A DNA stretch of 10,273 bases from the IMG/VR virus record IMGVR_UViG_2617270966_000009, one strand, 5' to 3'. This DNA comes from a virus (lineage: Duplodnaviria > Heunggongvirae > Uroviricota > Caudoviricetes). Each line of letters begins with the position of its first letter. Position 1 is the first letter of the stretch. A program made the translations under genes and the position numbers. Positions 1-9,458 of this stretch are shown piece after piece. Under the pieces are notes generated by a model. The model was not told the origin of the DNA, did not search any database, and saw only the letters and a list, made by a program, of their open reading frames with translations.

Positions 1-1254
1 ATGCCAAAACTCACAGACATGCAGATCCGCGCATGGATAAAGGCCGGGGAGCGATTCGAGGGACGCTCTGACGGTAACGGGCTTTATCTTTCATACCGCG
101 AAAACTACCAGACCCCCGTCTGGCGATTCCGCTATAAATTCGCAGGGAAACCCCGCGCCATGCTGATTGGCTCATATGCCGAGCTATCACTATCAAAGGC
201 CAGAGAGACAGCCAAAGAGCTATCGGCTCGCGTTGCGCTGGGCTATGACGTTGCAGGAGAGAAGCAGAAGCGCAAAACCGAAGCACTGGCGAAGATGGAA
301 GCAGAGAAGAACGCTATGCGCGTTTCAGAGCTTGCCGCTGAATACTTTGAGCGTCAGATCCTCCCGCGCTGGAAGCACCCCGATATACTCCGCCGCCGTA
401 TCGACAAAGATATAAACCCATGCATTGGCAGCATGAAGGTGGAGGACGTGAAGCCGCGCCATATCGACGACATGCTGAAAAGTATTGTTGACCGTGGAGC
501 GCCGACCATAGCAACGGACGTTCTGCGCTGGACACGCCGCATATTTGACTACGGCATTAAGCGGCACGCACTGGAGATTAACCCGTGTTCAGCCTTTGAG
601 GTGGCAGACGCCGGAGGGAAAGAAGTTTCCCGCGACCGCTGGTTAACACGTGGCGAACTAATCCGACTGTTTCAGTCTATGCGCACGGCTAAGGGATTCA
701 GCCGTCAGAACGAAATCACGTTCAAATTACTGTTAGCGTTATGCGTCCGCAAAATGGAGTTATGCGCCGCCCGCTGGGAGGAGTTCGATTTTGATAAAGC
801 CGTATGGCATTTACCAGAGGAACGCAGCAAAAACGGCGACGCTATAGACATCCCATTAGCACCGCCAGCCGTCGAATGGCTGAGAGAGCTTAAAACGTTC
901 TCATGCAACAGCGCATGGGTGCTTCCAGCCAGGAAGATGCAAAACAGAATGATCCCACATATTCAGGAAAGCACTTTACCCGTAGCACTGGCTAAGGTTC
1001 GCGCTGAAATGCCTGATGTGCCTAATTTCACGATTCACGACTTCCGACGCACCGCACGTACTCATTTAGCAGCGCTGGGCGTTGATCCGGTAGTCGCAGA
1101 AAGATGCCTTAATCACAAAATTAAAGGCGTGGAAGGTATCTATAACCGTCACCAGTATTTTGATGAGCGTAAAGCGGCGCTGGCGCAGTGGTGTGATTTG
1201 CTGGTGGCACTGGAAAGCGGAAAAGACTACAACGTAACGCCAATCAGAGCATGA
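1..1254 (+). CDS. int: Tyrosine-type site-specific integrase, phage P4 / CP4-57 family
   Basis: 417-aa ORF. N-terminus (KLTD.QIRAWIKAG...GLYL...WRFRYKF.GK.....GSY..LSL..AR) matches the arm-binding N-terminal domain pattern of P4-like integrases as I recall it. C-terminus carries the catalytic signature HDFRRT ... LNHK ... GIYNRHQY (R-H-R-Y tyrosine recombinase core). ATG at position 1, so the att site and any tRNA target lie upstream, outside the window. Confidence 0.9.
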   Translation: MPKLTDMQIRAWIKAGERFEGRSDGNGLYLSYRENYQTPVWRFRYKFAGKPRAMLIGSYAELSLSKARETAKELSARVALGYDVAGEKQKRKTEALAKMEAEKNAMRVSELAAEYFERQILPRWKHPDILRRRIDKDINPCIGSMKVEDVKPRHIDDMLKSIVDRGAPTIATDVLRWTRRIFDYGIKRHALEINPCSAFEVADAGGKEVSRDRWLTRGELIRLFQSMRTAKGFSRQNEITFKLLLALCVRKMELCAARWEEFDFDKAVWHLPEERSKNGDAIDIPLAPPAVEWLRELKTFSCNSAWVLPARKMQNRMIPHIQESTLPVALAKVRAEMPDVPNFTIHDFRRTARTHLAALGVDPVVAERCLNHKIKGVEGIYNRHQYFDERKAALAQWCDLLVALESGKDYNVTPIRA

Positions 1255-1272
1255 TGAGAGGAAAGATTCATA

Positions 1273-2223
1273 ATGAAATTACCTGCGCATAAATATTATT
1301 CTTTGGATAAAGCAGCCAAACTGGCCGGATGTGAAGTATCCGATTTAATACACTATGCAGCAATTGGGGTTTTAGAAATATGTATAAAAATTCCACCTAT
1401 TGAATTGTTTTACCATTACCCCAAAAATGAAGATGCCGACCCAGAATTACTTAAAGTTGAAACAGATAGTATTTTTCATATAGATACAAAAGCAGCACAT
1501 GAGAATTATCTTCTTAATCTGAGCAATGAGGCAGATAATCTCGAATCATATGGCTTATCACCGCTTGATTATAAAAATAGCGATAACCATATGTATTTTA
1601 TGAGGTTTTCATACAAATCAGAACATTTCTCAGTTATAGAGCGATACAATGTTGGGAAGGATGAAAGAGATATCGAAAGATGGAACGGTCTATTAGCAAT
1701 TCCGTCTGCGTTCATAGATAACGATGAGCGGGAGCTATCAGAATGGGATGATTGGGAGATCTCCGTATGCGAACTGACGCCTCCGAGATGTGACGAGTTT
1801 AGCAAATCGAATAATTATGAAATCGGAGCTTTTTATATTGACGGCTGGTATGAAATAAGCCGAAATAAAATGTATATAACTGACTATGAATACAATCTTC
1901 TTATAAATGGAGGAAAATATATTTATGACAGACCCATGCACAAACCACCCGCAAACAAGTTATCCAATGATATAAATACGCTAAAAGTTAATAAACGTGC
2001 CGAACGGTACGCAGTCAATAGGGAGAAACTATTAAAATCTGCAATTTATATACTTAGTAAGTATCCAAATGAATGCAGGGGAGTAAGGAAAGAAATAAGC
2101 CCTGAGAAGTGGCGTGACTGTCTTGTTCGTCATTTAGACGAAGTTCCACCACTTATGATAACTAATGAAGATGTAATTCTTAAACAGCTGCGATCTGCGG
2201 CAAATGGCAAAGTGGATAGTTAA
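1273..2223 (+). CDS. Hypothetical protein, AT-rich orphan gene with putative N-terminal HTH-like segment; function unknown
   Basis: 316-aa ORF starting 19 nt after the int stop, with GAGAGG upstream of the ATG. Composition is clearly more AT-rich than its neighbours (hand count about 38% GC in the first 60 nt versus about 55% at the start of int). N-terminus (YSLDKAAKLAGCEVSDLIHYAAIG) resembles an excisionase/MerR-type helix-turn-helix; the rest is rich in Y/N/K/E/D with no motif I recognise. Followed by a hairpin plus T-run at 2234-2261. Confidence 0.75.
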   Translation: MKLPAHKYYSLDKAAKLAGCEVSDLIHYAAIGVLEICIKIPPIELFYHYPKNEDADPELLKVETDSIFHIDTKAAHENYLLNLSNEADNLESYGLSPLDYKNSDNHMYFMRFSYKSEHFSVIERYNVGKDERDIERWNGLLAIPSAFIDNDERELSEWDDWEISVCELTPPRCDEFSKSNNYEIGAFYIDGWYEISRNKMYITDYEYNLLINGGKYIYDRPMHKPPANKLSNDINTLKVNKRAERYAVNREKLLKSAIYILSKYPNECRGVRKEISPEKWRDCLVRHLDEVPPLMITNEDVILKQLRSAANGKVDS

Positions 2224-2233
2224 CTTGCTATAG

Positions 2234-2261
2234 AGGTACTGCAAAATTACAGTACCTTTTC
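2234..2261 (+). terminator. Putative rho-independent terminator after the AT-rich gene
   Basis: Perfect 8-bp inverted repeat AGGTACTG (2234-2241) / CAGTACCT (2250-2257) with an 8-nt loop, followed by TTTT. The stem is AT-rich, so moderate strength. Confidence 0.5.
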
Positions 2262-2329
2262 ATTGTATATCTATACAGCTAGATTTCTCGTAACGAAGCA
2301 ACAACTACCGCTAAGAGGTTACGGGAATC

Positions 2330-2533
2330 ATGAACATCGACACTATCCCTACAAAAGGCTATATCAGACGCTTCCGCCTTGCTGAATTGCTGGGCGTTAG
2401 TGTTTCAACCATTGATCGCAAAGTTCGCAGCGGCTCGCTACCGCGCCCGGTAAAGCTGGGGGAGAAGATTACCGCCTTTGATGCGGTAGAGATTAATAAC
2501 TGGCTGGCGGAGCGCCGGGGAAAGGTGGCGTAA
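2330..2533 (+). CDS. alpA: AlpA-family phage transcriptional regulator (HTH_17-type)
   Basis: 67-aa ORF with RBS AAGAGG upstream. LAELLGVSVSTIDRKVRSGSLPRPVKLGEK...AFDAVEINNWLAER matches the AlpA/excisionase-like HTH pattern (ligand-free HTH followed by a conserved W). Position after int is the canonical AlpA location in PICIs and CP4-57-like islands. Confidence 0.85.
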   Translation: MNIDTIPTKGYIRRFRLAELLGVSVSTIDRKVRSGSLPRPVKLGEKITAFDAVEINNWLAERRGKVA

Positions 2534-2967
2534 TGAAAAAGAAAAACCGCCCCGTACAGCAGGCGGCTAACTCAGATATTCGCACGTCTGATATTACGCC
2601 GACCACCAGCCCGGTACAAGTACCTAAGCGAACCCCAAAGAAACACCGCGCCCGCGTCTATATGCTGCGTACTGGCGTAGAGGGATGGACAGAAAACGAC
2701 ATTCTGCGATATTGCCGCCTTTCATCTGGAAGGAACTACGCCAGCGAGTTAGAGCGCAGGCTTGATATTCAGCTTGAGCGTATAGACGAAAAGAACCCCG
2801 ACGGGATAGGGTCACATTTACGCTATCGCTTTACCGGGCGCGGTGACGTTCTAAAAGTTATTCGGCTTGTGAACCATAACGCCGACGCTGGCGGCTATCA
2901 GGGACTTTCTCAGCCTGAAATTGCCGACATTCTCAACCTATACCCGGACAATCTCACCGCCGCCTAA
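2533..2967 (+). CDS. Hypothetical protein with basic, low-complexity N-terminus
   Basis: 144-aa ORF whose ATG overlaps the alpA stop (TAATG), indicating translational coupling. N-terminal 40 residues are rich in K/R/P/T. No recognisable catalytic motif. Confidence 0.65.
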   Translation: MKKKNRPVQQAANSDIRTSDITPTTSPVQVPKRTPKKHRARVYMLRTGVEGWTENDILRYCRLSSGRNYASELERRLDIQLERIDEKNPDGIGSHLRYRFTGRGDVLKVIRLVNHNADAGGYQGLSQPEIADILNLYPDNLTAA

Positions 2968-2979
2968 CGGAGACTGAAA

Positions 2980-3813
2980 ATGAACATCGAAAAAAGCAGA
3001 TTAATTTCTGAGGCCGCCCCTCATCTGAACGCCTATCAGGGCACAATTAACGGTAATGAATTTGCCGCAATTGTCCCGGTTATTCCTGGTCATATCGGTG
3101 GGCGTGAAACCAATATTGTTAGCGCAAAAGCGTTACACAAAGCGTTGGGCGTGGGAAAAGACTTCTCTACATGGATCACTGATCGCATCTCTGAATATGA
3201 CTTCACCATTGGGCACGATTACTCAGTCCATAAAACAATTTCCCCAAATTTGGGGAAAAGCCCGAATGGCGCGGCTTACAGCAAGATTAAGCAGTCTGGC
3301 AGACCCGGCAAAGACTATCTGTTAAGTGTCGGAATGGCGAAAGAACTGGCAATGATCGAACGCAATGATCAGGGTCGCGCTATCCGCCGTTATTTCATCC
3401 AGTGCGAGGAAGAATTACAGCGTAGCGTGCCTGAAATCGCCGCCCGCTATCGTCGCCAGCTAAAAGCCCGTATCAGTGCCGCAAACAACTTTAAGCCAAT
3501 GTGCGATGCGCTGAATATGGCCCGTGCCGAGATGGGTAAAGCGACGCAGCAGCGCCACTACAGCAACGAGAGCAACATGATCGCCCGTATCGTGCTGGGT
3601 GGCATGACGGCGAAGCAGTGGGCGCAGGCAAATGGCATTACTGGCGAACCACGGGACAGCATGAACGCAGCACAGCTTGAACACCTCGCCTATCTCGAAA
3701 GCACCAATATCACGTTAATTGATATGGGCATGGAATATGAGCAGCGCAAAGGAGAACTCCCCCGCCTGTCGCAACGCTGGCTCGCTAAACGTCTGGAGGT
3801 AAACCATGCGTAA
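2980..3813 (+). CDS. Phage antirepressor / regulatory protein-like (Bro-N / KilA-N / Rha / AntA-type N-terminal domain)
   Basis: 277-aa ORF with RBS GGAGA 7 nt upstream. N-terminal region (NEFAAIVPVIPGHIGG...NIVSAKALHKALGVGKDFSTWITDRI...DYLLSVGMAKELAMIERNDQGRAIRRYFIQCEEEL) has the layout of phage antirepressor-type DNA-binding domains. The exact family cannot be resolved by eye. Confidence 0.7.
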   Translation: MNIEKSRLISEAAPHLNAYQGTINGNEFAAIVPVIPGHIGGRETNIVSAKALHKALGVGKDFSTWITDRISEYDFTIGHDYSVHKTISPNLGKSPNGAAYSKIKQSGRPGKDYLLSVGMAKELAMIERNDQGRAIRRYFIQCEEELQRSVPEIAARYRRQLKARISAANNFKPMCDALNMARAEMGKATQQRHYSNESNMIARIVLGGMTAKQWAQANGITGEPRDSMNAAQLEHLAYLESTNITLIDMGMEYEQRKGELPRLSQRWLAKRLEVNHA

Positions 3814-3988
3814 CCATAATCCGATGCCGGGAAGCCGTTACAAGGACAGTCACGGGGCTGTAGTGACCGTACAGCGCGTCGAGCATAACCGAGTGACCTT
3901 TTACCGCGAGGGCTATCAGTCGCCATGTGTTCAGCCTTTGGAGAGATTCGTTAATGAGTTCGTGGAGGTGCGCCGTGATACTGAATGA
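3806..3988 (+). CDS. Small hypothetical protein (60 aa)
   Basis: ATG at 3806 overlaps the stop of the upstream gene (ATGcgTAA) and is preceded by GGAGGT, suggesting translational coupling. Resembles small conserved prophage proteins, but I cannot name the family with confidence. Confidence 0.5.
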   Translation: MRNHNPMPGSRYKDSHGAVVTVQRVEHNRVTFYREGYQSPCVQPLERFVNEFVEVRRDTE

Positions 3989-4160
3989 ACCTGCCGCCCA
4001 GAAAGAAGCCTTTAATCTGGCTAGCCTGTTAACAAATGTTAACCCTTACAACCTTATAAAACCAAAGGTCGCGAACGGCTGCCTGTTATCAATTGTTATG
4101 GTTAATGACTTAGCAAAACTTAGCCTGAACCTCACAAAACCTGACATCCACGCACGGGGA
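3989..4160 (+). promoter_or_regulatory. Putative promoter/operator region for the downstream replication operon
   Basis: GTTAACAAATGTTAAC at 4028-4043 is two palindromic GTTAAC hexamers spaced exactly 10 bp centre to centre. It is followed by CCTTACAACCTTA and a TATAAA box (4055-4060). No convincing sigma70 -35 at canonical spacing, which would fit an activator-dependent promoter. The call is weak because a long open + frame runs through this region. Confidence 0.3.
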
Positions 4161-4694
4161 ATGACGACAAATGATGACATTTTAAACCAAGAAATAATCA
4201 CCTCTAAAAAGCTGATTGTGGGGAATAAATTCCCCCTGCTGGCTGGTGGTATGAACTGGATTGCTACCGTTGTGAACCGTTCCACATCGACTTTCGCGAC
4301 AAATACGCGTGCGCTGGAAGATTTATTAGGGGTCGTTACGCGAGAAGGTGAGTATTCGGAGTCCATAAAAAAGGGCTTGCCGACTATCGCCAACCCGGTT
4401 TATGGTTATAGCGCACCAGCAAAATCTGGTGCCGGGATTGGCGTCCTGATAATGTTACAGGCGACACATGACGCGCCGAGCGTCTTTTTTTGTGTCCTCG
4501 CATCTGCACACCTCTTTCCCAGCGATATGGCTATAGCCCATATTGCTCAAAAAGTAATGGTGGGCTGGATGGGGGCGGAGCGATCCGCGCCGGTTTCCTG
4601 TAACGCCGGTTACGCCAACCCTGTTCAGCTCACCACCAGTGAAATTGGCGTTTCCGGTGGTGGGAATAAATCCCAGTTACAGGAGGCTGCCATA

Positions 4695-5372: not shown

Positions 5373-5714
5373 ATGATTACTAAAAATTTCCGACTGAATG
5401 CGCTGGCGAATAAGTATGCGTCGGCACTGTATAACCACATTACCTCCACCAGCGGCGGGGACTATTTCATGGTTGATGCGGACGGCCTCGCCGTCCGTGT
5501 GGAAATCGTCAATGGAGTAAAAGGCGTTCGCAGTCTGATCGATAGCTACACACTGGCAGCCATGAAAGTGTCCTACCCGCAGTGGGAAACCGTGGGGGTC
5601 GAGCTTCTTGAGCGTTGCGTCACTAATGACGGATTGACTGACGTCGGGCGTGAGATATGGCAAAGCATGGTTAAAGACATGGGCGCGACCGTGGCAGGAG
5701 GCAACCATGCGTAA
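5373..5714 (+). CDS. Hypothetical protein (113 aa), immediately upstream of and coupled to the primase
   Basis: ATG at 5373 with GAGGGGG RBS (5362-5368). Stop TAA at 5712-5714 overlaps the primase ATG at 5707 (ATGcgTAA). Confidence 0.6.
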   Translation: MITKNFRLNALANKYASALYNHITSTSGGDYFMVDADGLAVRVEIVNGVKGVRSLIDSYTLAAMKVSYPQWETVGVELLERCVTNDGLTDVGREIWQSMVKDMGATVAGGNHA

Positions 5715-8148
5715 TATCGACCTTATCCGCGAAGTGACCAGTGCCGCCGCCGGGCGCTGGCCTTATGTGCTGGCTGGATTGTCTATCGACGTGCCTGATT
5801 CATCGCGCCGCCATTCTCCATGCCCTGCATGTGGTGGAAAAGACCGTTTCAGATTCGACGACAACGGGCGCGGTAGCTTTATCTGCAATCAGTGTGGCGC
5901 TGGTGACGGTTTAGACCTGATTAAGAAGGTGAACAACTGCGACACTACGGAGGCGGCACAGCTTGCCGCTGATGTGCTGGGTATTGATTACCGGGCAGCG
6001 GAAACCGCCCCGGTGGCAGCGAGCCATAGAAGAGAGCAACTGGAAGCTGACCGCCAGCAGCGTGAGCAGGAGCGCCAGAAACAGGCAGCAGAGGATGCAG
6101 AGCAGCGAAGGGCTACGTTTGCCCGTCTGTATGCCGGAATGCGCCAGAGTGCCACACAGGGAGAATCTGATTACCTGCAATCAAAAGGGCTGACCGGGTT
6201 TAACTATCCGGTTATGCCGGATGGTTCGTTATTGCTGGAGCTGGTGGACGAATCCGGCGCAGTGGCAGCAGCGCAAACCATTACACCGCAGGGAGAGAAG
6301 CGACTCCTGACAGGTTCAGCAAAGCGCGGGGCATATCACGCCGTAAACGCACCAGAACAGCCGCAGAGCGTATTAATTGCCGAGGGGCTGGCTACGGCCC
6401 TGTCCGTTCACCTGATGCGCCCGGACGCGCTTACAGTGGCGGCAATTGACGCCGGGAACCTGATCCACGTTGCCAGAGTAATGCGCCGGGAACACCCGCA
6501 GTCGCAAATTATCATTGCCGCAGATAACGACCACCAGCAGGACGAACAGGCGAACACGGGCAAAGATGCCGCAGAGAAAGCCGCCTTATCCGTGGCTGGC
6601 TGGGTGGCGCTGCCGCCGACAGACTACAAAGCCGACTGGGACGACTACCGCCAGCAAAACGGGCTGGAAGTCGCTACGGCTGCGTTTAACGATTCGATGT
6701 ACCAGATTCAGGGGGAAGCCGTGAAACCACAACTACAGGCCATTGTGGGCGGTAAATCCCGCCGTAAAGCCGAAGTCGGAGATATTGCACAAATGGCAGC
6801 CAGCCAGAAAGCGCGGTTGCTTTCATCTCGCTGGGATATGTTGGCGGTCAACCCTGATAGTGGCGCTGTTTACTGCTACGAATCTGGCGTATGGGTGAAG
6901 CTACCAGACAGCGAATTAGAAAGGGTTATGGTGGCAATTTTCGACGAGCACGAAGCCCACTACACCGAAAAAGGGATTAAATCGGTTGTCGCAACCATGA
7001 AGCTGCAAATACCGGTAATTGGTGAGCGGAGCGGGGATCTGATTGGTTTTGATAACGGCGTTTATGACCTCGCTACGCAGACGTTTTCCGCCCATTCGCC
7101 GGGTAACTGGCTGATGAACCACAATGGGATCACCTACACCCCGCCAGCGCTGGGGGAAAATATTACCACCAGCGCCCCCAATTTTACCCGTTGGCTGAAT
7201 CATGCAACGGCTGGCGACCATCATAAGGCCGAGCGTATCAAAGCAGCCTTGTTTATGGTGCTGGCGAAGCGTCACGACTGGCAGCTATTCATTGAGATAA
7301 CTGGCGAGGGCGGCAGTGGGAAATCCGTATTCAGCAGCATAGCAACCACGCTGGCAGGTGAACACAACACCGCCAGCGGTAGCATGATGACGCTGGACAC
7401 CGCACGGGGACGGGCGCAGTTCGTAGGAAAAAGCCTGATTATTATGCCTGACCAGACCCGCTATGTTGGAGAGGGTGCGGGGATTAAAGCCATTACGGGC
7501 GGCGATCCGGTAGAGATTGATGGGAAATATGAAAAGCAGTTCACAACCGTGATAAATGCCGTTGTTATGGCAACCAATAACGAGCCGATGACATTCACGG
7601 AGCGAAACGGGGGCATTGCCCGCCGCCGCGTGATATTCCCGTTTAATAACCCGGTATCAGACGCAGACAAAGACCCGGATTTAACCGCAAAAATCAGGCG
7701 AGAAATCCCGGTGATTATCCGCCACCTGCTAACCACCTTTGCCGACCAGAACAAAGCAAAGGCACTATTACTAGAGCAGCGCGATTCGCAGGAGGCGCTA
7801 GAGGTTAAACGCGGCACGGATCCGGTTGTCGATATGTGTGCGGCGCTTTTTTTCATGAACGAACCCAAAGGCATGATGATGGGCGGAGGTACATGGGCAG
7901 GCCAGCCAGAGCCGAGGACGTATCTTTATCATCTTTATCTGGCGTTTATGGAGTATCACGGTTTGGGTAAACCGCTTTCCGTCAATAAGTTTTCACGCGC
8001 CATAAAATCAGCAGCAAAAGAGTACCGAGCCAGCTACCTGACGAGAAGCATTAACGGCAGAGCGCAAACCAACGTTGGCTATAACGAGAAGGCTGAGGAG
8101 TTCATGCCACGCGCTTACGGTGTGGAGAGCGGGCAGAGTGATGATTGA
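5707..8148 (+). CDS. Replication primase-helicase: primase Zn-ribbon + Toprim + phage/plasmid primase P4-family / D5-like SF3 NTPase
   Basis: Preferred start ATG 5707 with CAGGAGG 5 nt upstream; the track's longer ORF begins at a GTG at 5650 without an RBS. Zn-ribbon CPACGG...CNQCG at 5821-5895. Acidic Toprim-like IIIAADNDHQQDE with DND at 6523-6531. Walker A GEGGSGKS at 7303-7326. Size (813 aa) and domain order match P4 alpha-like and PICI pri-rep proteins. Confidence 0.9.
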   Translation: MRNIDLIREVTSAAAGRWPYVLAGLSIDVPDSSRRHSPCPACGGKDRFRFDDNGRGSFICNQCGAGDGLDLIKKVNNCDTTEAAQLAADVLGIDYRAAETAPVAASHRREQLEADRQQREQERQKQAAEDAEQRRATFARLYAGMRQSATQGESDYLQSKGLTGFNYPVMPDGSLLLELVDESGAVAAAQTITPQGEKRLLTGSAKRGAYHAVNAPEQPQSVLIAEGLATALSVHLMRPDALTVAAIDAGNLIHVARVMRREHPQSQIIIAADNDHQQDEQANTGKDAAEKAALSVAGWVALPPTDYKADWDDYRQQNGLEVATAAFNDSMYQIQGEAVKPQLQAIVGGKSRRKAEVGDIAQMAASQKARLLSSRWDMLAVNPDSGAVYCYESGVWVKLPDSELERVMVAIFDEHEAHYTEKGIKSVVATMKLQIPVIGERSGDLIGFDNGVYDLATQTFSAHSPGNWLMNHNGITYTPPALGENITTSAPNFTRWLNHATAGDHHKAERIKAALFMVLAKRHDWQLFIEITGEGGSGKSVFSSIATTLAGEHNTASGSMMTLDTARGRAQFVGKSLIIMPDQTRYVGEGAGIKAITGGDPVEIDGKYEKQFTTVINAVVMATNNEPMTFTERNGGIARRRVIFPFNNPVSDADKDPDLTAKIRREIPVIIRHLLTTFADQNKAKALLLEQRDSQEALEVKRGTDPVVDMCAALFFMNEPKGMMMGGGTWAGQPEPRTYLYHLYLAFMEYHGLGKPLSVNKFSRAIKSAAKEYRASYLTRSINGRAQTNVGYNEKAEEFMPRAYGVESGQSDD

Positions 8149-8164
8149 AACTTTTACGGCGGCA

Positions 8165-8415
8165 CTTATCCCTACTGCCCTACTAAAAACGAGACGAGGC
8201 CAGACGTAGCAAGGCTTTAAACTAGGTAGGGATATATATTTTTATCCCTACTTATCCCTACATATCCCTACCAAATAAAACAGGCAGTAAAATGCCGTTG
8301 AAGTGATTTAGTAGGGATAAGTAGGGTTATGTAGGGCAACAAAATTGAATGCCTACCAGTCTGAAAGCCTTGCCATTCGTGGCATGAGCCAGTTAGTAGG
8401 GATTGGTAGGGATAT
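8165..8415. repeat. Iteron cluster, putative origin of replication of the element
   Basis: At least 11 copies of a GTAGGG(A/T)T-type motif, mostly in phased arrays with exact 10-bp spacing. Minus-orientation copies (CCCTAC) at 8170-8175, 8178-8183 and three tandem TATCCCTAC at 8244-8272. Plus-orientation copies at 8226-8232, three at 8311-8336 and two at 8396-8411. Located directly downstream of the primase-helicase gene, the canonical ori position in PICIs. Confidence 0.7.
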
Positions 8416-8485
8416 TACACCCCCAAAAAGATTCTATGGGGGGGTGAGCTTAAAACGAAACTTGTCAAAACTTGACACACAGAAC

Positions 8486-8520
8486 GATGCCAGCAGCTAC
8501 TGAGCGGCGGCATTTTTTTG
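8486..8520 (+). terminator. Possible weak terminator downstream of the primase operon
   Basis: Short imperfect stem (ATGCC ... GGCAT) followed by a run of seven T at 8514-8520. The stem is weak, so this is tentative. Confidence 0.25.
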
Positions 8521-8582
8521 TGCTATTTGTTTCATATTTTGCAATTACGGTGATAAATATTGCTATTTGTGAAACTATAATA
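8518..8582 (+). promoter_or_regulatory. Putative promoter with flanking direct repeats upstream of the small-protein / metallopeptidase operon
   Basis: Perfect -10 hexamer TATAAT at 8576-8581. Exact 10-mer direct repeat TGCTATTTGT at 8521-8530 and 8561-8570 (40 bp apart), a candidate operator. The -35 is not obvious. A consensus TTGACA also occurs at 8471-8476. Confidence 0.35.
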
Positions 8583-8613
8583 ACTGTTGTTTTATACAGT
8601 TCTAAGGGGCGTT

Positions 8614-8787
8614 ATGGCTATTTCAGTAAAGCCGGTATTGATAAGTGAGAAGCAAATGGAAGCGATAAAGAAAATTCAGGAGGAGCAGCGTAAAAAATCA
8701 GAGGTAGGAGTTGCGCCAACGATCCACGAAATTGCTCGGGGATTAATGGATAAGGCGCTGGCCTCACTGGCAAGCGAGGGCGCGTAA
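8614..8787 (+). CDS. Small protein (57 aa), possible ribbon-helix-helix-type DNA-binding protein / antitoxin-like
   Basis: ATG at 8614 with AAGGGG RBS; the track's longer ORF begins at a TTG at 8587. Predicted short N-terminal strand (SVKPVLISEKQ) followed by helical segments. Stop TAA overlaps the ATG of the next gene (TAATG at 8785-8789). The fold assignment is an inference, not a motif match. Confidence 0.5.
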   Translation: MAISVKPVLISEKQMEAIKKIQEEQRKKSEVGVAPTIHEIARGLMDKALASLASEGA

Positions 8788-9458
8788 TGGGCGCCATTCA
8801 CCAGATATATGAGCATGAAATGTTCTATAACTGGATAGGTGATGGTAAACGATGTGTAGCATTCCACGAAGCGGGACATGCAGTAGCTGCATGGCTTATT
8901 CGCTTAGATATACAGGTTATCGCCGTTATGGATGAATACGGTTACGTTGCTGGCGAACATGTACATGAGGCCAAGTGTTTGGGCGTTGTTAAACACAGCA
9001 TAATTCACAGCCACGATCTCGGGCGTTTGCGGGATAGTAAATCTGGTGTAGTTGGGCAGAATGGTAAAGTTATCCCTTTCATACGTTACTATGCGGATGG
9101 TATAAAGCGCGATGCAAAAAAGGCCGCTTTTGTATCCCTCGCCGGACCAGTAAGCGAAGCCCTTTACGAAAACAACGATATTTTCAACAAAAAGTATTCG
9201 CTACCTCATCGCTATGACATGGCTAACGTAAATGACATGCTCGATTTAATCTGCGCTACAGATAAGCAAATTAACAGGGAGTTAATGCTTTCTAAACTCG
9301 TTGAAAAGACCAAAGCCCTCATGGCTCAATACTGGTATGAAGTAGAAAAAATAGCGCATTTGCTTGAACGGGATAGCATTGTGAATGGTCGAAATGTTAG
9401 CTCGTTAATTGGCATCAACGTCATAGACCGGGCAACGCCATTTTTGCTGGTGGAATAA
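8787..9458 (+). CDS. Standalone zinc metallopeptidase-like protein with HEAGH motif (FtsH/M41-like or ImmA-like active site)
   Basis: 223-aa ORF, translationally coupled to the upstream small gene. Contains VAFHEAGHAVAAWL (HEAGH encoded at 8865-8879), which closely resembles the FtsH peptidase M41 zinc-binding site; acidic residues downstream could supply the third ligand. No AAA+ ATPase domain is present. GC content is visibly lower than the replication genes. Confidence 0.7.
   Translation: MGAIHQIYEHEMFYNWIGDGKRCVAFHEAGHAVAAWLIRLDIQVIAVMDEYGYVAGEHVHEAKCLGVVKHSIIHSHDLGRLRDSKSGVVGQNGKVIPFIRYYADGIKRDAKKAAFVSLAGPVSEALYENNDIFNKKYSLPHRYDMANVNDMLDLICATDKQINRELMLSKLVEKTKALMAQYWYEVEKIAHLLERDSIVNGRNVSSLIGINVIDRATPFLLVE

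Follow-up and report, generated by a model that had tools for sequence, protein, structure and literature searches.

A mirror-symmetric array of twelve short iterons next to a P4-family primase-helicase gene as the probable replication origin of an Escherichia coli chromosomal island

Introduction

What is the function of the dense cluster of short inverted repeats that follows the primase-helicase gene in IMG/VR virus record IMGVR_UViG_2617270966_000009, and which protein reads it? The whole stretch of DNA analysed here (10,273 bp, hereafter "the window") comprises a 465-bp unannotated gap in which this array begins, 18 bp past the primase-helicase stop codon (8146-8148). From the letters alone, an original prediction had taken the repeats for a probable iteron origin of replication bound by the product of the adjacent gene. 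Our analyses support this reading through the position of the array, the structural similarity of a protein domain, the covariation of that domain with the repeat, and the precedent of a related island, and we conclude that segment 8149-8459 is very probably the vegetative replication origin of an E. coli phage-inducible chromosomal island (PICI), read by the island's own primase-helicase. As such, it is a PICI origin of an already described kind, with a homologue that has already been tested, and its specific feature is the repeat GTAGGGAT.

Results and Discussion

Twelve phased sites form a pseudo-palindrome

Counted on both strands of the window, GTAGGG occurs 13 times against 3.2 expected, a number reached by none of 200 dinucleotide-preserving shuffles, and 11 of these copies fall inside 8170-8411, with two in the remaining ~10 kb. 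The longer form GTAGGGWT is found 10 times (0.32 expected), nine of them within the array region. This enumeration bears out the original prediction that a GTAGGG(A/T)T-type motif recurs at least 11 times, and a search for GTAGGGATA allowing two mismatches added a degenerate twelfth site (GTAGGCATT, 8348-8356). If a denotes CCCTAC and b denotes GTAGGG, both on the top strand, the 12 sites (8-9 bp, consensus GTAGGGATA) are arranged in the order aa-b-aaa/bbb-a-bb (2-1-3/3-1-2), as follows:

8167-8175 and 8176-8183, minus strand: outermost pair on the left (a a), TATCCCTAC plus TGCCCTAC, 8-bp spacing
8226-8234, plus strand: single reversed iteron (b), GTAGGGATA, then the pure A/T stretch ATATATATTTTTAT (8232-8245, 14 bp)
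8243-8251, 8253-8261 and 8263-8271, minus strand: left inner triplet (a a a), three copies of TATCCCTAC, 10-bp spacing
8272-8310, no strand: central spacer and dyad centre, 39 bp, 33% G+C (67% A+T), candidate melting site
8311-8319, 8321-8329 and 8331-8339, plus strand: right inner triplet (b b b), GTAGGGATA, GTAGGGTTA and GTAGGGCAA, 10-bp spacing
8348-8356, minus strand: single degenerate site in reverse orientation (a), AATGCCTAC (opposite strand GTAGGCATT), mirror of the site at 8226
8396-8404 and 8406-8414, plus strand: outermost pair on the right (b b), GTAGGGATT plus GTAGGGATA, 10-bp spacing

The earlier picture of three tandem copies facing three GTAGGG copies, with further copies on both sides, corresponds to the triplets at 8243-8271 (TATCCCTAC three times) and 8311-8339, which are flanked by the single sites and the outer pairs. 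Likewise, the spacing described as largely exact at 10 bp holds: sites in both triplets and the right-hand pair recur every 10 bp without deviation, and those of the left-hand pair are set 8 bp apart. Absent from that description was the global dyad symmetry of the array. A 39-bp centre of moderate A+T-richness has six sites to its left and six to its right, the dyad centre falls near 8291, and the order of the sites is its own reverse complement, which makes the entire 250 bp a pseudo-palindrome. An inverted-repeat search returned 68-nt arms that are 75% complementary, and region 8160-8420 folded as single-stranded DNA gave -57.5 kcal/mol vs. -25.3 +/- 3.3 in shuffles (z = -9.75). The spacer between the single site at 8226-8234 and the left triplet is 100% A+T, and the central spacer contains a small hairpin (GGCA-N6-TGCC). 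Compared with the Buttiauxella relative, the array is conserved at 80% of the repeat positions (85/106) vs. 45% of the remaining ones (69/155).

The two ~40-bp spacers (8184-8225 and 8357-8395) each hold an inverted repeat of the form AAGCC-N10-12-GGCTT (GCAAGGCTTT at 8209-8218 and AAAGCCTTGC at 8364-8373). The same spacer repeat is seen in Buttiauxella, Rosenbergiella, Yersinia and Aeromonas, and on the right side only in the E. coli PICI EcCICFT073, whereas P4-type origins have plain A+T-rich spacers in its place.

The adjacent gene encodes a primase-helicase with a C-terminal match to the origin-binding domain of P4 alpha

Two features of the gene directly upstream bear on the question of what reads the array:

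5650-8148, plus strand: primase-helicase gene (Pri-Rep, P4 alpha family), the longest open reading frame (ORF), GTG at 5650, RefSeq-equivalent ATG at 5707
7816-8094, plus strand: C-terminal winged-helix origin-binding domain, residues 704-796 of 813 aa, presumed iteron reader

The protein (813 aa from ATG 5707, 832 aa from GTG 5650) is named 'phage/plasmid primase, P4 family' in RefSeq and contains the Pfam domains Zn_Ribbon_Prim, Toprim_3, D5_N, DUF5906 and Pox_D5. Its identity to P4 alpha is 39% over the full length (812 aligned positions), with the same domain order. In a solved-structure search, residues 704-796 matched PDB 1KA8, the origin-binding winged-helix domain of P4 alpha (E = 4e-8), and residues 387-649 matched 7OLA (E = 1e-11), the self-loading SF3 helicase SaPI5 PriRep (identity confirmed in PMC9371898). 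We would expect the C-terminal domain (~residues 700-813) to be cognate to GTAGGGATA, as opposed to the non-cognate GGTAGACA and TGTTCACC.

The layout is conserved while the repeat follows the C-terminal domain

Relatives were gathered as 76 loci from one-genome-per-species contigs, several E. coli islands and two plasmid records (cited below by L numbers), and the repeat of each locus was taken as the most repeated short word in the 450-480 bp after the gene. The order aa-b-aaa/bbb-a-bb is shared by 11 loci using at least five different repeats, and their spacers are as follows:

From the first outer pair to its single site: 35-48 bp
From there to the first triplet: 10-13 bp
Central spacer: 24-74 bp, with 56-79% A+T
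From the second triplet to its single site: 4-23 bp, usually 10-13
From there to the last outer pair: 35-49 bp

The repeats themselves differ among the relatives. Identities below are for the last 130 aa against the window protein, except in the rows for Klebsiella, EcCIRM13514/Ecol_224 and EcCICFT073/IHE3034:

E. coli L003 and L004, plus Kluyvera, Atlantibacter and Buttiauxella (L003, L004, L007-L009): C-terminal identity at least 80%, repeat GTAGGGA
Rosenbergiella L010: C-terminal identity 76%, repeat GGTAGAGA
Yersinia, Tolumonas and two Aeromonas: C-terminal identity 54-58%, repeats GGTAGATA, GGTAGACC, GGTAGGGT and GGTAGAGA
L011, L048, L066 and L068 (P4-type C-terminus): ~35%, repeat GGTGAACA, the P4 type I iteron
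Yersinia relatives L037 and L039: ~38%, repeat CTGAACA or CTGAATA
Proteus L029: ~37%, repeat GGTGCACA
Klebsiella circular element: 85% over the helicase and origin-binding domain, repeat GTAGACG/GTAGAGG
EcCIRM13514 (L083) and Ecol_224 (L088): P4-type C-terminus, L083 ~28% over the last 115 aa, repeat GGTGAACA
EcCICFT073 (L084) and IHE3034 (L086): L084 ~44% over the last 115 aa, repeat GGTAGAYA

Across ~25 related loci, these sequence comparisons indicate that the repeat tracks the C-terminal origin-binding domain, and not the primase, the helicase or the integrase, because natural swaps separate these candidate determinants. First, L005 and L006, which occupy the same yicC-dinD site as the window's island, share the N-terminal primase (81-88%), but have an unrelated DUF927 C-terminal half and about 12 GAGACAACA repeats. 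Second, L048 shares 83% of the helicase and only 35% of the C-terminal domain, and its repeats are of the P4 type (GGTGAACA). Third, EcCIRM13514 has an integrase 87% identical to that of the window, yet carries P4-type repeats. Overall, P4-type repeats are found only beside P4-type C-terminal domains (L011, L048, L066, L068, L083 and L088). An alignment of the C-terminal domains separates two clades, GTAG and GTGAACA, that match the iteron families; no simple residue-to-base code is evident in this alignment. Since L005 and L006 join the shared primase to a DUF927 half and a different origin, the helicase, the binding domain and the origin appear to be exchanged as one cassette.

The recombination joint of the L005/L006 gene lies near codon 350-370, and the DUF927-type origins (L005 6780-7050 and L006 6840-7110) show GAGACAACA in the order aaa-(A+T-rich)-bbb-bb-a-bbb. 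Among the Xenorhabdus and Photorhabdus relatives (L015-L035), a simple 7-mer count over the 480 bp after the gene revealed no clear repeat family, and their origins may lie elsewhere or contain more degenerate sites. Many Xenorhabdus genomes hold several copies of a primase-helicase ~50% identical to that of the window.

The original prediction had also described the repeat as unlike the P4 ori iteron and had suggested a distinct replicon specificity. The window's repeat does differ from the P4 type I iteron (TGTTCACC), and the difference in specificity is borne out by EcCIRM13514, an island with a near relative of the window's integrase and the same attachment site that carries P4-type iterons instead.

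A homologous origin has been tested in another E. coli island

Comparison with the ori regions of characterised PICIs, which had been proposed as a check, shows the same layout with a different repeat, GGTAGAYA, in EcCICFT073 and IHE3034. In EcCICFT073 the origin is immediately 3' of pri-rep, its sites follow the order aa-b-aaa/bb(b)-a-bb with near-identical spacer lengths, and part of its right-hand spacer (CTGAAAGCC...GCCATT..TGGCATG) can be aligned with that of the window. The two proteins are 54% identical over 441 aa, covering the helicase and the origin-binding domain, and the islands are of one type (int, alpA, Icd, DUF4222/AntA, PerC). They differ in the repeat (GGTAGAYA vs. GTAGGGAT in the window), in the protein (584 aa vs. 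813 aa in the window, which has a full P4-type zinc-ribbon and Toprim primase N-terminus), and in the long left spacer, which is A+T-rich in EcCICFT073 and not in the window. When placed on a temperature-sensitive plasmid, the pri-ori segment of EcCICFT073 gave colonies at the restrictive temperature, and pri or ori mutants gave significantly fewer (PMC6092414).

The repeat GTAGGGAT is absent from six published E. coli PICIs examined, in a comparison that did not extend to the published iteron figure (Figure 2a, PMC6092414), and a literature text search for the repeat strings returned only unrelated I-SceI-type sequences, with no match for the tandem strings. Two published PICIs, EcCI042 (L085 5203-5403) and EcCI clone D i14 (L087 5659-5862), have a RepA-family helicase rather than a P4-type primase-helicase, and their repeats, AAGTGAGG and AGTGGGGA, respectively, are packed into some 200 bp between this gene and the next.

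More distant systems are similar in design. In the pathogenicity islands of Staphylococcus aureus (SaPIs), origins consist of 6-12 iterons immediately 3' of rep, in opposite directions around an A+T-rich centre, that are bound by the C-terminal winged helix of a self-loading helicase, two hexamers of which are proposed to load without a loader (PMC9371898). The likeness, which includes the helicase match to SaPI5 PriRep, is one of design and distant helicase homology, not of origin sequence: SaPIs belong to another lineage and host, and their iterons are 5-6 bp long and unrelated in sequence. Classical plasmid iteron origins (pSC101, R6K, F and P1, with RepA or Pi) share with the window repeated initiator sites near an A+T-rich region and specificity for their own initiator. 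However, their iterons are 17-22 bp long, mostly direct, and flanked by DnaA boxes and integration host factor (IHF) sites, and their initiator is a non-helicase that needs host DnaA, DnaB and DnaC, whereas the window pairs a primase-helicase with mirror-symmetric 8-9-bp sites and lacks both DnaA and IHF consensus sequences.

The array belongs to the primase-helicase module of an island

The window opens at the start codon of a tyrosine integrase gene (1-1254), and its genes all lie on one strand: the integrase, a 67-aa helix-turn-helix protein (2330-2533, AlpA-like), AntA-domain and Ash/Icd-like genes, and the primase-helicase, with a PerC gene downstream in the island. E. coli chromosomes carry near-identical DNA as a ~12-kb island between yicC and dinD, and this attachment site is listed for the PICI EcCIRM13514 (Table S1, Fillol-Salom et al., 2018, PMC6092414). 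The integrase, the AlpA-type regulator, the rightward unidirectional genes, the size (~8-15 kb for PICIs) and the dedicated attachment site all agree with the criteria by which PICIs are recognised; by its genes and attachment site, the host element classes as a PICI, a small satellite that parasitises phages, in the E. coli chromosome.

At a threshold of at least 95% identity, array 8150-8460 was detected in 76 of 5,426 complete E. coli genomes, where it is always chromosomal and never annotated; a search against the phage collection gave no DNA match, even in distant mode. Because similarity to many E. coli islands ends at ~8459, and because other genes come after this array in L003 and L004, we consider the array part of the primase-helicase module and not of the downstream genes. 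The boundary is thus placed as follows:

8415-8459, no strand: right-hand limit of the pri-ori module, with CACCCCC-N15-GGGGGTG at 8418-8446

A G/C motif of this kind, CCCCC-AAAAAGATT-N-GGGGGGG (generally AAAACTTTT...GGGGGGTA), stands right of the last iteron pair throughout the GTAG clade, whatever the repeat, and was seen at 8418-8446 of the window and in L003, L007-L010, L018, L038, L069, L084 and L089. Its fold in the window is weak (z = -1.7), and it may delimit the module or act as a signal for priming or unwinding. Just beyond the boundary, a tandem 10-bp direct repeat (AAACTTGTCA / AAACTTGACA, 8458-8477, plus strand) precedes a terminator-like hairpin followed by seven T's (8486-8519, plus strand; RNA fold -20.4 kcal/mol, z = -4.95). 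Scans of 8050-8800 for consensus promoters and terminators found none, and the hairpin, which is outside the array, was seen by folding only. Since it lies 3' of the origin, transcripts of the primase operon should traverse the origin. A structured RNA was considered and rejected, as the only Rfam matches in 7900-8900 (E up to 1) were two eukaryotic ones, meaningless and below threshold.

A related island (L089) is deposited as a 22.86-kb circular record with no typed replicon (NZ_CP033626.1, Klebsiella pneumoniae 4743 'plasmid unnamed1') and carries int, an AlpA-like helix-turn-helix gene, AntA, Icd, the primase-helicase, SSB, PerC and a tape-measure-like gene. Genes at 213-4559 are duplicated at 18417-22763 (4.35 kb), which gives a true unit of ~18.2 kb, and its origin (15690-15960, minus strand) shows the 12-site layout with GTAGACG and GTAGAGG alternating. 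This element may represent a PICI maintained as an episome, or else an excised circle that was over-assembled.

Weighing the origin assignment against its alternatives

The assignment of 8149-8459 as a replication origin is carried by the sites and their symmetry, their position, the domain homology, the joint variation of domain and repeat, and homology with an origin tested by experiment, all of which are observed or computed. We also counted in its favour the deposition of the related Klebsiella island as a circular extrachromosomal record without another typed replicon.

Several points weigh on the other side. Binding, melting and replication are, for the window element, predictions from sequence. 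The melting site is ambiguous, since the central spacer is only moderately A+T-rich (67%), and the long left spacer is 55% A+T in the window vs. 77-86% in EcCICFT073 and the P4-type origins. Two of the twelve sites are weak: 8348-8356, and 8176-8183, in which only the core is present; the outer pair to which the latter belongs is at an equivalent position in all compared relatives and in the P4 ori. The Klebsiella circle, with its 4.35-kb duplication, could be the assembly of an excised, non-replicating circle. In EcCICFT073, deletion of ori lowered colony numbers without abolishing them (PMC6092414). Finally, the element directly 3' of alpha in P4 is crr, an auxiliary cis site and not the start site.

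This last point leads to the most serious rival, namely that the array is a crr-like auxiliary enhancer acting in cis and binding the protein, with the true ori elsewhere. P4 does have crr as the block directly 3' of alpha, its ori lies 4.5 kb away beside the AlpA-like ORF88, and each crr repeat (b-aaa-(A+T-rich)-bb) equals the inner part of the window layout. We nevertheless judge this improbable: the complete island L001 has no second cluster, the array contains the full P4-ori order aa-b-aaa at matching spacings, together with its mirror image, and a segment of EcCICFT073 with only pri and the 3' repeat block replicated (PMC6092414). The only other candidate is a lone GTAGGGAT within the alpA-like coding sequence, a site with no counterpart in other islands. 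We considered this perfect GTAGGGATA match (2344-2352, minus strand, 15 bp into the coding sequence, kept in L001; expected frequency ~0.08) as a relic second site and rejected it as chance, because it lies inside coding sequence and the CFT073, RM13514 and DUF927-type islands lack an equivalent.

Still less probable, in our view, is that the repeats are operators, either for the downstream accessory operon (8614 onward) or for autoregulation of the primase operon, rather than an origin. Phased inverted repeats are typical of operators too, the array stands between two gene blocks, and both the terminator-like hairpin and an A+T-rich stretch ahead of the next gene would suit such a role. However, the array moves with the primase-helicase and not with the downstream genes (boundary at ~8459; L003 and L004), its repeat changes together with the origin-binding domain, a scan of 8050-8800 yielded no sigma-70-like promoter, and twelve sites across 250 bp far exceed what an operator needs. 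The bound protein may have a secondary autoregulatory role.

That the repeats serve a host or recombination protein, as DnaA boxes (TTATCCCTA resembles TTATCCACA, and TTATCCCTAC has 7 of the 9 bases of DnaA box R1), integrase arm sites (P4 has 12-bp integrase arm repeats near crr), a partition site or a packaging site, is highly unlikely, since repeats change between same-site islands of the same host and so follow neither DnaA nor integrase (integrase arm sites being rejected on the different repeats of EcCIRM13514 at 87% integrase identity), the DnaA consensus TTWTNCACA is matched nowhere in the window, the array is mid-island at a distance of 7 kb from int, and neither a Pfam scan of the ten largest ORFs nor the island annotation revealed partition genes.

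A model for initiation

With the array as a very probable origin, initiation could proceed as follows. After helper-phage induction, the primase-helicase would bind the twelve sites through its C-terminal winged helix, and within each group the 10-bp phasing would turn all sites to one helical face. Owing to the mirror symmetry, two oppositely oriented hexamers could load themselves to the left and right of the A+T-rich centre, with melting at this centre (8272-8310) and/or at the pure A/T run (8232-8245). The N-terminal primase would then prime the start, and bidirectional theta replication would ensue, for which host DnaA and a helicase loader would not be required. We infer the binding, the double-hexamer loading, the melting site and the directionality. 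The window contains no DnaA consensus and no IHF consensus, and this lack fits a self-loading initiator. P4 replication driven by alpha is independent of DnaA.

Relation to the split origin of P4

P4 resembles the window's island in that alpha has the same architecture with a C-terminal winged-helix origin-binding domain (1KA8), and in that its repeats are of 8 bp and in both orientations. In alpha's sense, P4 ori reads aa-b-aaa with spacings of 10, 43, 22, 11 and 10 bp, which matches the left half of the PICI layout and comes closest, almost to the base pair, to the P4-type origin of EcCIRM13514; Proteus L029 likewise shows only the left-half layout. The crr element, directly 3' of alpha, consists of two 120-bp repeats. 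This refines the original prediction, as P4 has crr and not ori directly 3' of alpha, and its ori corresponds to the left half only of the window array.

The differences are equally clear. P4 uses the type I iteron instead of GTAGGGAT, its ori and crr are 4.5 kb apart and both required in cis, with extra type II repeats, and a terminator stands between alpha and crr, whereas the terminator-like hairpin of the window comes after the origin. The window has one compact mirror-symmetric array, with no second cluster in the window or in the complete island L001. In addition, no Pfam families of the P4 genes sid, psu, delta and epsilon were found in the ten largest ORFs, and none of these genes is among the L001 island annotations.

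It is conceivable, and we propose it tentatively as somewhat less probable than its converse, that the 2-1-3/3-1-2 arrangement is the loading platform of the whole P4-alpha/PICI Pri-Rep family, and that the split origin of P4 is a taken-apart version of it, ori being the left half and crr two inner cores. This correspondence is not stated in the literature examined, and could already be known. If true, looping between ori and crr by alpha would rebuild in three dimensions what PICIs hold side by side. The pairs of C-terminal domain and repeat (GTAGGGAT, GTAGAGA, GTAGACA, GTAGATA, GTAGACG, GGTGAACA, CTGAACA, CTGAATA and GTGCACA) would then be a readable recognition code, and a set of mutually orthogonal replicons.

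Conclusions

An origin at this position is in itself unsurprising to specialists. The assignment would nonetheless give a function to an unannotated 310-bp stretch and define the replicon specificity (incompatibility type) of a PICI lineage. The comparison, in which one site layout recurs with at least nine repeat sequences, also bears on how the ori and crr of P4 relate to PICI origins, and the islands that share one attachment site while jointly swapping their origin-binding domain and origin form a panel with which to test how self-loading primase-helicases recognise and open their origins.

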